From assembly GCF_044324785.1 (NCBI RefSeq), contig NZ_CP172127.1: a DNA stretch of 64,000 nucleotides. One strand, given 5' to 3'. Shown here piece by piece: positions 33,801-39,800 of the stretch (the stretch's first letter is position 1; every line of letters begins with the position of its first letter). This DNA is from Escherichia coli (GTDB lineage: Bacteria > Pseudomonadota > Gammaproteobacteria > Enterobacterales > Enterobacteriaceae). The position numbers are program-made.

Positions 33801-36800
33801 CATTACGCTTGCCCACAACGGCAATCTGACCAACGCTCACGAGTTGCGTAAAAAACTGTTTGAAGAAAAACGCCGCCACATCAACACCACTTCCGACTCG
33901 GAAATTCTGCTTAATATCTTCGCCAGCGAGCTGGACAACTTCCGCCACTACCCGCTGGAAGCCGACAACATTTTCGCCGCCATCGCTGCTACAAACCGCT
34001 TAATCCGCGGCGCGTATGCCTGTGTGGCGATGATTATCGGCCACGGTATGGTTGCTTTCCGCGATCCAAACGGGATTCGTCCGCTGGTACTGGGAAAACG
34101 TGATATTGACGAGAACCGCACAGAATATATGGTCGCTTCCGAAAGCGTAGCGCTCGATACGCTGGGCTTTGATTTCCTGCGTGACGTCGCGCCGGGCGAA
34201 GCGATTTACATCACTGAAGAAGGGCAGTTGTTTACCCGTCAATGTGCTGACAATCCGGTCAGCAATCCGTGCCTGTTTGAGTATGTATACTTTGCCCGCC
34301 CGGACTCGTTCATCGACAAAATTTCCGTTTACAGCGCCCGCGTGAATATGGGCACGAAACTGGGCGAGAAAATTGCCCGCGAATGGGAAGATCTGGATAT
34401 CGACGTGGTGATTCCGATCCCGGAAACCTCTTGTGATATCGCGCTGGAAATCGCGCGTATTCTGGGCAAGCCGTACCGCCAGGGCTTCGTTAAAAACCGC
34501 TATGTTGGCCGCACCTTCATCATGCCGGGTCAGCAGCTGCGTCGTAAGTCCGTGCGCCGTAAACTGAATGCCAACCGCGCCGAGTTCCGCGATAAAAACG
34601 TCCTGCTGGTCGACGACTCCATCGTCCGTGGCACCACTTCCGAGCAGATTATCGAGATGGCACGTGAAGCCGGAGCGAAAAAAGTGTACCTCGCTTCTGC
34701 GGCACCGGAAATTCGCTTCCCGAACGTTTACGGTATTGATATGCCGAGCGCTACGGAGCTTATCGCTCACGGGCGTGAAGTAGATGAAATTCGCCAGATC
34801 ATCGGTGCTGACGGGTTGATTTTCCAGGATCTGAACGATCTGATCGAAGCCGTTCGCGCTGAAAACCCGGATATCCAGCAGTTTGAATGCTCGGTGTTCA
34901 ACGGCGTCTACGTCACCAAAGATGTTGATCAGGGCTACCTCGATTTCCTTGATACTTTACGTAATGACGACGCCAAAGCCGTGCAACGTCAGAACGAAGT
35001 GGAAAATCTCGAAATGCATAACGAAGGATGATGCCTTCGCTCAGGGTGCCGGTCTGGCACCCTGACTTGCAACTCCCGCCGAAATCCTGCAAAGTCTGCC
35101 TGCAAGTCTGACAGGGCAACTATTTATGAAACGACTCATTGTAGGCATCAGCGGTGCCAGTGGCGCGATTTATGGCGTGCGTTTATTACAGGTTCTGCGC
35201 GATGTCACAGATATCGAAACGCATCTGGTAATGAGCCAGGCGGCGCGCCAGACCTTATCTCTTGAAACGGATTTTTCCCTGCGCGAAGTGCAGGCATTAG
35301 CCGATGTGACGCACGATGCGCGCGATATTGCTGCCAGCATTTCTTCCGGTTCTTTCCAGACACTGGGGATGGTGATTTTACCCTGTTCAATCAAAACCCT
35401 GTCCGGCATTGTCCATAGCTATACTGATGGCTTACTGACCCGTGCGGCAGATGTGGTGCTGAAAGAGCGTCGCCCGCTGGTGCTCTGCGTGCGTGAAACA
35501 CCATTGCACTTAGGCCATCTGCGTTTAATGACCCAGGCGGCAGAAATCGGTGCGGTGATTATGCCTCCCGTTCCGGCGTTTTATCATCGCCCGCAATCCC
35601 TTGATGATGTGATAAATCAGACGGTTAACCGTGTACTCGATCAATTCGCCATAACGCTTCCTGAAGATCTCTTTGCCCGCTGGCAGGGCGCATAACCTCA
35701 TTGTTGCCCTGTTTCAGGGCAATTTTGCAACCGCGATCAAATCCTCGACATTTTGTTCCTTTCGATGAATCGAAACGCTGCGATTCAACCGCCATACCTG
35801 CTATCTTCAACTTCAGGACAATAATGCAACGTCTTATTAACATATTTAACGTTGAATGTTACTGTTGTCGTAAAGATGGCATAAGACCTGCATGAAAGAG
35901 CCTGCAAACACACAACACAATACACAACATAAAAAAGCCATTTTCACTTGAGGGTTATGTATGAAGAAGTCGATTCTCGCTCTGTCTTTGTTAGTCGGTC
36001 TCTCCGCAGCGGCTTCCAGCTATGCGGCGCTACCGGAGACGGTACGTATCGGAACCGATACCACCTATGCGCCGTTCTCATCGAAAGATGCCAAAGGTGA
36101 CTTTGTTGGTTTTGATATCGATCTCGGTAACGAGATGTGCAAACGGATGCAGGTGAAATGTACCTGGGTTGCCAGTGACTTTGACGCGCTGATCCCCTCA
36201 CTGAAAGCGAAAAAAATCGACGCCATTATTTCGTCGCTCTCCATTACCGATAAACGTCAGCAGGAGATTGCTTTCTCCGACAAGTTGTACGCCGCAGATT
36301 CTCGTTTGATTGCCGCCAAAGGTTCACCGATTCAGCCAACGCTGGATTCACTGAAAGGTAAACATGTTGGTGTGCTGCAGGGATCAACCCAGGAAGCATA
36401 CGCTAACGAGACCTGGCGTAGCAAAGGCGTGGATGTGGTGGCCTATGCCAACCAGGATTTGGTTTATTCCGATCTGGCTGCAGGACGTCTGGATGCTGCG
36501 TTACAAGATGAAGTTGCTGCCAGTGAAGGATTCCTCAAGCAACCTGCTGGTAAAGATTTCGCCTTTGCTGGCTCATCAGTGAAAGACAAAAAATACTTCG
36601 GTGACGGCACCGGTGTAGGGCTACGTAAAGATGATGCTGAACTGACGGCGGCGTTTAATAAGGCGCTTGGCGAGCTGCGTCAGGACGGTACCTACGACAA
36701 GATGGCGAAAAAGTATTTCGACTTTAATGTCTACGGTGACTGATACGTCGCAGGGAAACTGTACCTGATGGAATGATCATCATGGTGCACGCCAGGTTTG

Positions 36801-39800
36801 TTGCACTATCGTGGTGCATTGAAATGCATACTTAAGCATTTTTAATGAAAAATAATACGTCTAACGGGGCGGGATATTTTGCCTTGATGGTCAATTTTAT
36901 GGCACGATAAGTGTAACAAACCTGTAAATATTCCCTATAAAAAGACCGTCAGTTGAGGACATTATGAAAAAACTGGTGCTATCGCTCTCTCTGGTTCTGG
37001 CCTTCTCCAGCGCAACTGCGGCGTTTGCTGCGATTCCGCAAAACATCCGCATCGGTACCGATCCGACCTATGCGCCATTTGAATCAAAAAATTCACAAGG
37101 CGAACTGGTTGGCTTCGATATCGATCTGGCAAAGGAGTTGTGCAAACGCATCAATACGCAATGTACGTTTGTCGAAAACCCACTGGATGCGTTAATCCCA
37201 TCCTTAAAAGCGAAGAAGATTGACGCCATCATGTCATCGCTTTCCATTACGGAAAAACGTCAGCAAGAAATAGCCTTCACCGACAAACTGTACGCTGCCG
37301 ATTCTCGTCTGGTGGTGGCGAAAAATTCCGACATTCAGCCGACAGTCGAGTCGCTGAAAGGCAAGCGGGTAGGCGTATTGCAGGGCACCACCCAGGAGAC
37401 GTTCGGTAACGAACATTGGGCACCAAAAGGCATTGAAATCGTTTCTTATCAGGGGCAGGACAACATTTATTCTGACCTGACTGCCGGACGTATTGATGCC
37501 GCGTTCCAGGATGAGGTCGCTGCCAGCGAAGGTTTCCTCAAGCAGCCAGTCGGTAAAGATTACAAATTCGGTGGCCCGTCTGTTAAAGATGAAAAACTGT
37601 TTGGCGTAGGGATCGGCATGGGCCTGCGTAAAGAAGATAACGAACTGCGCGAGGCTCTGAACAAAGCCTTTGCCGAAATGCGCGCTGACGGTACTTACGA
37701 GAAATTAGCGAAAAAGTACTTCGATTTTGATGTTTATGGTGGTTAATCGCCATCGGTGAAAGAAAGCCCGCTCCCTTTGGGTAACCGGAGGGAGACAAGA
37801 GGCGGTAATTCACCACACACGACAGGACAGGCTGCATGTTGTATGGGTTTTCAGGTGTTATTTTACAGGGTGCGCTCGTCACGCTGGAGCTGGCTATCAG
37901 CTCTGTAGTGCTCGCTGTAATCATCGGTTTAATTGGCGCTGGCGGTAAGCTCTCGCAAAATCGGCTTTCGGGCCTTATTTTCGAAGGCTACACCACGCTG
38001 ATTCGAGGCGTGCCGGACTTGGTGTTGATGCTGCTAATTTTCTACGGTTTGCAGATTGCACTAAACACGGTGACGGAGGCGATGGGCGTCGGGCAGATTG
38101 ATATCGATCCGATGGTCGCTGGTATTATTACTCTCGGTTTTATCTACGGTGCTTATTTTACCGAAACGTTCCGTGGTGCTTTTATGGCAGTGCCGAAAGG
38201 ACATATAGAGGCGGCGACGGCGTTCGGTTTCACTCGTGGGCAAGTGTTTCGGCGGATCATGTTTCCGGCGATGATGCGTTACGCCCTGCCAGGCATTGGC
38301 AACAACTGGCAGGTGATCCTCAAATCTACCGCACTCGTTTCGTTACTCGGCCTGGAAGATGTGGTCAAAGCCACCCAACTGGCAGGCAAAAGTACCTGGG
38401 AACCGTTCTATTTCGCCATCGTCTGTGGCGTGATTTACCTGGTTTTCACCACTGTTTCCAATGGTGTGCTGCTGTTCCTTGAGCGCCGCTACTCCGTGGG
38501 TGTGAAGAGGGCTGACCTGTGATCGAAATCTTACATGAATACTGGAAACCGTTGTTGTGGACCGACGGTTATCGCTTTACTGGCGTGGCGATCACTCTGT
38601 GGCTGCTTATTTTGTCGGTAGTGATAGGCGGAGTCCTGGCGCTGTTTCTGGCGATTGGTCGTGTCTCCAGTAATAAATACATCCAGTTTCCAATCTGGTT
38701 ATTTACCTATATTTTTCGCGGTACGCCGCTGTATGTTCAGTTGCTGGTGTTCTATTCCGGCATGTATACGCTGGAGATTGTTAAGGGGACCGAGTTCCTT
38801 AACGCCTTTTTTCGCAGTGGCCTGAACTGTACCGTGCTGGCGCTGACGCTTAACACCTGCGCTTACACTACCGAGATTTTTGCCGGGGCAATCCGTTCAG
38901 TGCCGCATGGGGAAATTGAAGCCGCCAGAGCCTATGGCTTCTCGACCTTTAAAATGTATCGCTGCATTATTTTGCCATCGGCGCTGCGTATTGCGTTACC
39001 GGCCTACAGCAACGAAGTGATCCTGATGCTGCACTCTACTGCGCTGGCATTTACTGCCACGGTGCCGGATCTGCTGAAAATAGCCCGCGATATTAACGCC
39101 GCCACGTATCAACCTTTTACCGCCTTCGGCATTGCCGCGGTGCTCTATTTAATCATCTCTTATGTCCTGATCAGCCTCTTTCGCGGAGCGGAAAAACGCT
39201 GGTTGCAGCATGTGAAACCTTCTTCAACGCACTGAGAATACGATGTCCGAGAATAAATTAAACGTTATCGATTTGCACAAACGCTATGGCGAACACGAAG
39301 TGCTGAAAGGGGTGTCACTGCAAGCGAATGCCGGAGATGTAATAAGCATCATCGGATCGTCGGGATCGGGGAAAAGTACCTTTCTGCGCTGCATTAACTT
39401 CCTCGAAAAACCGAGCGAAGGATCGATCGTGGTCAATGGCCAGACGATCAATCTGGTGCGCGACAAAGACGGTCAACTCAAAGTCGCCGATAAAAATCAG
39501 CTGCGCTTACTGCGCACACGCCTGACGATGGTATTCCAGCACTTCAATCTCTGGAGCCATATGACGGTGCTGGAAAACGTCATGGAAGCGCCGATTCAGG
39601 TGTTGGGCCTGAGCAAGCAGGAAGCGCGCGAGCGGGCGATGAAGTATCTGGCGAAAGTCGGGATTGACGAACGTGCGCAGGGTAAATATCCGGTGCATCT
39701 TTCCGGCGGTCAACAACAGCGTGTTTCTATCGCGCGGGCGCTGGCGATGGAACCGGAAGTTTTACTGTTTGATGAACCTACCTCGGCGCTCGATCCTGAA

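Follow-up and report, generated by a model that had tools for sequence, protein, structure and literature searches.

Nitrogen-regulation signals of the Escherichia coli argT-hisJQMP transport cluster: the sigma-54 promoter of argT and a single strong NtrC box before hisJ

The stretch of Escherichia coli DNA analysed here (64,000 nt of contig NZ_CP172127.1, assembly GCF_044324785.1; referred to below as the window) carries the argT-hisJQMP transport cluster. The genes purF, ubiX, argT, hisJ, hisQ, hisM and hisP all lie on the + strand, between positions 33514 and 40016. K-12 has the identical gene order, carried on its minus strand. The argT coding sequence (35961-36743, + strand) specifies the lysine/arginine/ornithine-binding protein and hisJ (36964-37746, + strand) is the first gene of hisJQMP. 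Two regulatory motifs, one before argT and the other in the argT-hisJ spacer, are the main subject of this text, and they are very probably the established nitrogen-regulation (Ntr) signals of the cluster. A 1.5-kb query around the motifs found one match each in 5,425 of 5,426 complete E. coli genomes, and the annotations under the match were always ubiX, argT and hisJ. The gene identities given by an earlier sequence-only reading of the window were thus right. Over the locus, identity to most E. coli is about 97% and to strain 2012C-4221 99.3%, which places the window in a divergent Escherichia lineage. Both spacers, ubiX-argT and argT-hisJ, nevertheless give gap-free alignments with K-12 in which every motif discussed here is identical, so that published K-12 data can be applied directly.

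The sequence-only reading had placed a sigma-54 element of the -24/-12 type, TGGCAT-N5-CTGCAT, upstream of argT. This element is present on the + strand and spans 35877-35893, with the GG (35878-35879) and GC (35890-35891) dinucleotides of TGGCATAAGACCTGCA (35877-35892) at the canonical 10-bp spacing and the argT start codon at 35961, 84 bp downstream. A loose sigma-54 pattern taken alone is weak evidence: it matched twice in the 64 kb against 0.46 matches expected, and 8 of 100 shuffled sequences also reached two. The reading had proposed a weight-matrix scan as a check. A matrix was built from 41 intergenic E. coli sites bound by sigma-54 in chromatin immunoprecipitation sequencing (ChIP-seq), with argT excluded (Bonocora 2015, PMC4591121). 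It gave the 17-mer ATGGCATAAGACCTGCA at 35876-35892 a score of 14.9, which ranks second among 127,968 positions (0.53 expected per 64 kb) and exceeds 13 of the 41 bound training sites.

The weight of this promoter, argTp, derives from its position, its identity to a ChIP-bound site and its conservation. The K-12 sigma-54 ChIP-seq site OS22 is the identical 17-mer, and its transcription start, predicted 58 nt before the argT start codon (Bonocora 2015, PMC4591121), agrees with the start predicted at about 35903 in the window. The element is therefore the published sigma-54 promoter of argT. The same 18-mer is bound by sigma-54 in Salmonella LT2, where argT expression is 3.5-fold sigma-54-dependent (PMC3844500). 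Genomic SELEX (systematic evolution of ligands by exponential enrichment) with sigma-54 holoenzyme also selects the ubiX-argT spacer (PMC8743547), argT is described as transcribed from an NtrC-activated sigma-54 promoter (PMC6640053), and a sigma-70 promoter repressed by sigma-54 overlaps argTp (PMC4551910). In a set of 77 Enterobacteriaceae species, one locus per species, a sigma-54 motif scoring at least 12 stands about 84 bp before the argT start codon in 76.

The second motif, TGCACTATCGTGGTGCA at 36802-36818, is a high-affinity NtrC box in the argT-hisJ spacer. It is the sole exact match to TGCAC-N6-GGTGCA in the window and agrees with the 17-bp dyad TGCACC-N5-GGTGCA at 11 of the 12 specified positions. 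The NtrC matrix was derived from nine boxes upstream of K-12 glnA, glnH, glnK, nac and astC, which score 13.3-21.0 themselves; the box scores 19.8, within this range and at the top of the window, on a matrix that is partly circular because its training boxes were picked by consensus similarity. The next best score in the 64 kb is 11.5, and none of 40 shuffles reached 19.8. The neighbours of the box all score 7.7 or less. They include degenerate half-sites at 36760-36789 (+ strand; TGTACC at 36760-36765 and GGTGCA at 36784-36789), whose 17-mer at 36773-36789 scores 7.7, which is chance level; they align with better sites in Citrobacter and Salmonella. The E. coli spacer thus holds one strong box, where other genera have two or three in fixed slots. 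The sequence-only reading had announced palindromes in the plural: one full box stood, while the others are weak half-sites.

Published NtrC ChIP-seq, the second check that had been suggested, agrees with the matrix. Peak 12 of Brown 2014 (PMC4066584), 23.7-fold and assigned to hisJQMP, lies at 2424941-2425021 of NC_000913.2. Anchored at the argT motif (window position 35884 = 2425890) and carried through the gap-free alignments, it maps to 36753-36833 of the window, on the NtrC box and in identical sequence. The argT locus of the same study maps to 35833-35913, on the argT promoter, where NtrC gives a weak signal of 5.4-fold that had been added by eye (Brown 2014, PMC4066584). These data, obtained on identical sequence, establish that phosphorylated NtrC occupies the locus under nitrogen starvation, most strongly at 36802-36818 and weakly at argTp. 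In the same work, promoter-trapped RNA polymerase and expression rose at all 21 NtrC-bound units, including hisJQMP (Brown 2014, PMC4066584). The claim that the motifs fit known NtrC regulation of argT-hisJQMP is borne out by the identity to OS22, by peak 12 and by the literature on argT. Both sites had been recognised by eye, which confirms that regulatory sites can be read here directly from the sequence.

The loci listed by Brown 2014 have a positional habit of their own. Those at glnA, glnK, nac, astC, gltI, yeaG and yhdW (seven of nine control promoters) are centred 20-48 bp downstream of the centre of the sigma-54 motif and sit 70-250 bp from known NtrC boxes, and those at glnH and argT are centred 11 bp upstream of the sigma-54 motif. 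The hisJ locus is the exception, centred on the boxes and 114 bp upstream of a -24/-12-like element described below. Because the listed loci mostly track sigma-54 motifs, as in the seven controls, these coordinates were not used for placing weak NtrC sites, and an attempt to place argT's own NtrC site from them was dropped.

Between the NtrC box and hisJ lie two features that the earlier regulatory map, right about argTp and the box, had overlooked: an ArgR operator and the -24/-12-like element. The putative operator (36823-36861, + strand) consists of two 18-bp ARG boxes, at 36823-36840 and 36844-36861, separated by a 3-bp gap. The pair agrees with the consensus at 24 of 32 positions and is the second-best pair in the window. 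At the operator, the block ATGCATAnTTAAGC is kept across Enterobacteriaceae. The end of the NtrC box (36818) lies 4 bp before the first ARG box (36823). The control region of hisJ is described as containing a pair of such boxes bound by ArgR, which precede the -35 of a sigma-70 promoter; hisJQMP is transcribed from this promoter, and ArgR represses it weakly by a non-occlusion mechanism (PMC6640053). Sigma-70 holoenzyme also binds the argT-hisJ spacer in SELEX. A generic sigma-70 scan of 35650-37000 gave 0 matches, and a hexamer search for the hisJ sigma-70 promoter gave several weak, mutually conflicting candidates, so that the -35 and -10 were left unplaced. A published in-silico sigma-70 promoter of hisJQMP (TTGAAA-16-TTTAAT, 36819-36846) overlaps the ARG boxes; this placement conflicts with the ArgR literature, where the -35 is 17 bp downstream of the boxes.

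The hisJ -24/-12-like element, ATGGCACGATAAGTGTA at 36899-36915 (+ strand), overlaps the region of the sigma-70 promoter of hisJ. Its -24 is perfect, but the -12 carries GT (GTGTA) instead of GC in all Escherichia loci, and the element scores 12.7 with the sigma-54 matrix (rank 5). A proper TGCA is found at this -12 in Citrobacter and many other genera, and the orthologous element TGGCACGATAACTGCA of Citrobacter, Franconibacter and others scores 18.4. Over the 77 species the score is at least 14.7 in 36, 12-14.7 in 15, 8.6-12 in 10 and below 8.6 in 16; the element is decayed in Escherichia, Salmonella and Klebsiella pneumoniae and gone in Enterobacter, Leclercia and Cedecea. Despite its chance-level score, the E. 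coli element is regarded as meaningful because of its position and conservation. GT at -12 also occurs in three bona fide sigma-54-bound intergenic sites, those of pspA, pspG and ygeW (Bonocora 2015, PMC4591121).

The geometry of the spacer is highly regular. Of the 77 species, 69 have an NtrC box of score 13.3 or more between argT and hisJ, and the strong boxes occupy three slots measured centre to centre from the TGGCAY element, at 95-97, 116-118 and 146-148 bp, which differ by about two and three helical turns. Escherichia lacks a spacer segment of about 20-25 bp found in other genera, and its single strong box stands in the 97-bp slot, 97 bp centre to centre from the hisJ -24/-12-like element; argTp is 926 bp upstream of the box. 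At least 99% identity over the 161 bp from the half-sites through the hisJ element (36760-36920) is kept by 5,105 of 5,421 E. coli genomes, whereas the surrounding 1.5 kb shows 95-99% identity in nearly all of them. Such a near-invariant segment within more variable flanks indicates that the whole hisJ control region is under strong constraint.

Upstream of argTp, the intrinsic terminator of ubiX (35703-35727, + strand) begins 8 nt past the ubiX stop codon. With a G+C-rich hairpin (9-bp stem; folding energy -14.1 kcal/mol; z -3.55) directly after the stop codon and the U-run UUUUG behind the hairpin, it has the make-up of an intrinsic terminator. Within it, and likewise missed by the sequence-only reading, lies the 17-bp dyad TGCCCTGTTTCAGGGCA (35705-35721), which has the layout of an NtrC box and scores 9.3 with the NtrC matrix, a chance-level value that is nonetheless the highest for any NtrC box upstream of argTp in E. 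coli. In about 70 species its distance to the argTp TGGCA is fixed at -172, give or take 1-3 bp. Versions from other genera make good NtrC boxes, among them TGCGCCACGATGGTGCA (19.3, the best) and TGCCTCATAATGGGGCA (16.4). Of 34 distinct versions, 13 score at least 13, against 0.16% of random perfect 7-3-7 palindromes, in a comparison that takes the best score within a 60-nt window and whose versions are phylogenetically related. The dyad is a plausible candidate for the upstream NtrC site of argTp, and these patterns suggest that the hairpin may be a dual terminator/enhancer element. When an argTp fragment was relocated to the lac locus it still responded to raised levels of phosphorylated NtrC (NtrC-P), 2.4-fold against 3.2-fold natively (PMC4958250), which is consistent with the dyad being its site. 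Plasmid-borne argTp is reported in the literature to be strongly active.

Two further conserved blocks lie between the dyad and argTp. The first, TTTTGCAACCGCGATCAAATCCTCGACATTT at 35722-35756 (+ strand), is nearly invariant in an alignment of 20 Enterobacteriaceae genera, and no known factor could be assigned to it. A CRP-like reading of this block was dropped, as the key G is missing, although 7-8 of 10 positions agreed by eye. The second, an AT-rich block at 35825-35857 (+ strand) also conserved in the alignment, is a possible DNA-bending region. A scan of 35627-37082 for the IHF consensus with at most one mismatch gave no match, the total over the whole window being at the chance level, and an Rfam scan of 35000-38500 at E<=1 gave none either. 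The ubiX-argT spacer is far less conserved than the hisJ control region: only 63 E. coli genomes are at least 99% identical over 35700-35900. A short patch within it, at 35758-35772, varies relative to K-12 (TTCCTTTCGATGAATC against TTTCTGCCATTCAATC), with identical surroundings.

The way these elements may work together can be outlined as follows. NtrC-P dimers bound to such boxes form an ATP-hydrolysing oligomer, which reaches the sigma-54 holoenzyme by looping and drives promoter opening. Sequence and published data on identical sequence together place sigma-54 RNA polymerase in a closed complex on argTp (35876-35892). NtrC would fire this promoter and yield the argT transcript; as the upstream site from which NtrC acts on argTp, the weak dyad of the ubiX terminator at -172 is the likeliest candidate. 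A search for terminators after argT found weak A/U-rich or 5-bp stems only; in the absence of a strong terminator, part of the transcription from argTp probably reads on into hisJQMP. At the decayed hisJ element, where GC has become GT, any sigma-54 firing would be weak and NtrC-assisted, and basal expression of hisJQMP would come from sigma-70 under ArgR control.

The role of the spacer box is the point on which readings differ. The tentatively preferred one, held with rather less than even confidence, is that the box acts locally on the hisJ control region. It is favored by the 97-bp distance, canonical for an enhancer, by the fixed helical slots and by the consensus promoter present in many genera, as well as by the rise of trapped polymerase at all 21 NtrC-bound units. 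The constraint on the 161-bp region and the GT at -12 of the sigma-54-bound pspA, pspG and ygeW sites count in the same direction. A series of observations weighs against it. The hisJ element has no peak in the high- or low-stringency lists of K-12 sigma-54 ChIP-seq, for which the cells, grown in M9, were not nitrogen-starved, and genomic SELEX with sigma-54 holoenzyme, with or without NtrC, names the ubiX-argT spacer only (PMC8743547). The Salmonella LT2 ortholog, with its GC intact, does not figure among the sigma-54 ChIP-chip sites (PMC3844500) and carries the footnote 'not an active promoter', and hisJQMP is described as sigma-70-transcribed (PMC6640053). A score at the level of the hisJ element is expected 2.3 times per 64 kb by chance. 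Sixteen species have no usable -24/-12 at hisJ and 15 of them retain a strong NtrC box, which implies that the box does not depend on the hisJ element. Weak points of another kind are that only one strong NtrC box stands here, where classic enhancers have two, and that an in-vitro genomic SELEX with NtrC (cut-off 40%) omits the argT-hisJ spacer; given the in-vivo ChIP peak, this omission is treated as a limit of sensitivity.

NtrC enhancers can act at kilobase distances and from downstream positions, as is established for glnAp2. The spacer box could then be a remote downstream enhancer of argTp that loops back over 926 bp, leaving hisJQMP nitrogen-regulated by read-through only. The only sigma-54-occupied site of the locus is indeed argTp, while NtrC occupancy is strongest in the spacer (23.7-fold) and weak at argTp (5.4-fold), and upstream of argTp the E. 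coli sequence offers no NtrC box above 9.3. Nearly every species has the box (69 of 77) and argTp (76 of 77), the hisJ -24/-12 is often lost, and no strong terminator follows argT. Such remote action is nevertheless judged unlikely, as the argTp fragment keeps a response to NtrC-P at the lac locus and is strongly active on a plasmid, and an NtrC-like dyad is conserved at the fixed -172 position upstream. Moreover, fixed helical slots relative to the hisJ-proximal element would be unneeded for a 0.9-kb loop, and several other genera carry a terminator-like hairpin immediately after argT. It is also quite improbable that NtrC at the box acts on the sigma-70 promoter of hisJ, for instance by antagonising ArgR, or that the box is a relic with little effect. 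The box and the first ARG box being 4 bp apart, NtrC would bind right beside the ArgR hexamer; transcription of hisJQMP is by sigma-70 and is weakly repressed by ArgR without occlusion, sigma-70 holoenzyme binds the spacer in SELEX, and the box persists where the hisJ -24/-12 is gone. ArgT presumably needs HisQMP, and repression by ArgR-arginine would oppose arginine scavenging; were NtrC to antagonise ArgR, HisQMP could be made with arginine as nitrogen source. Against this, the only known actions of NtrC are activation at sigma-54 promoters and repression at overlapping sigma-70 ones (PMC4066584), and a literature search gave no precedent for anti-repression by NtrC, while the strong purifying selection on the hisJ control region speaks against a relic. 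That the motifs are chance matches devoid of any regulatory role is hardly credible. The loose sigma-54 pattern is expected 0.46 times per window, and the hisJ element and the half-sites are individually at chance level; for both main sites, however, chance is already refuted by ChIP-seq occupancy in vivo on identical sequence, and both are conserved across Enterobacteriaceae, with the NtrC score reached in 0 of 40 shuffles.

Comparison with known systems places the locus among well-described Ntr regions. The closest is its ortholog, the argTr/dhuA regions of Salmonella Typhimurium studied by the Ames laboratory, with the same argT sigma-54 18-mer (TGGCATAAGACCTGCATG), an NtrC box at the aligned spacer position (TGCACCATTTTGGTGCA in subsp. 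diarizonae) and, in LT2, a -24/-12-like element before hisJ (TGGCACGATAGTCGCATC), as in E. coli. Escherichia differs from it by the missing spacer segment of about 20-25 bp, by a box in the 97-bp rather than the 117-bp slot, and by GT instead of GC at the hisJ -12. The glnAp2 promoter of E. coli glnALG is likewise of the sigma-54 -24/-12 type and is activated by NtrC, whose 17-bp TGCACC-N5-GGTGCA dyads precede the centre of the motif by about 90-120 bp. It has two strong boxes 32 bp apart (with 1 and 2 consensus mismatches), whereas the argT-hisJ spacer has one strong box and half-sites, and the downstream -24/-12 element of the spacer is not sigma-54-occupied in published maps. At glnHp2, NtrC-like boxes overlap at 13-bp spacing and resemble the half-sites at 36760-36789 and their Citrobacter counterpart, but glnHp2 has been confirmed as a sigma-54 promoter and is occupied in ChIP (OS06). 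The pspA and pspG sites (OS15, OS40) carry TTGTA at -12, so that GT, as at hisJ, is compatible with sigma-54 binding; the hisJ element additionally has G for the first T of TTGC and shows no occupancy in published maps. Overlap of sigma-70 and sigma-54 promoters, documented at argT itself, is also known from glmY and glmZ.

Earlier publications on this locus and on its Salmonella ortholog already describe both main sites and their nitrogen control: the finding re-reads textbook regulatory sites of a model organism and adds nothing new to them. A puzzle remains in that NtrC binds strongly before hisJ while the published maps show no sigma-54 at this place. Comparative data turn it into the question of how enhancers are retained or re-used once a promoter decays; they comprise the conservation of the box over the 77 species, the decay of the hisJ -12 in several lineages, the fixed slots and the near-invariance of the region in about 5,100 E. 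coli genomes. A possible, if rather doubtful, answer is that the box, which keeps its slots even in lineages where the hisJ promoter has decayed or gone, is an enhancer that has outlived its original partner and now serves argTp 0.9 kb away or counters ArgR at the sigma-70 hisJ promoter, with the ubiX hairpin doubling as the NtrC site of argTp.

Two other sigma-54 matrix matches fall inside coding sequences. The best score of the window, 15.9, lies at 29588-29604 (+ strand), at the 3' end of a 219-aa open reading frame which, by its position in the K-12 map, we take to be dedA, the next frame presumably being accD. The fourth-best, 13.3, lies at 55500-55516 (- strand) within a 405-aa frame, which we assume from the same map to be alaA-like. 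Both are missing from the published high-stringency tables of sigma-54 ChIP-seq sites; the search of low-stringency coordinates covered 29588-29604 only.

Downstream of argTp, the argT leader contains a CA-rich segment, AAACACACAACACAATACACAACAT at 35905-35931 (+ strand), of the type targeted by the R1 seed of the small RNA GcvB; this feature, too, the sequence-only reading had missed. Its composition makes the segment a candidate R1 pairing region, and published R1 targets include argT, with verification in Salmonella and conservation in E. coli (PMC9299463). In the hisJ-hisQ spacer (37772-37830), a CA-rich tract accompanies a hairpin (CTCCCT...AGGGAG), and hisQ has likewise been published as a target of GcvB.

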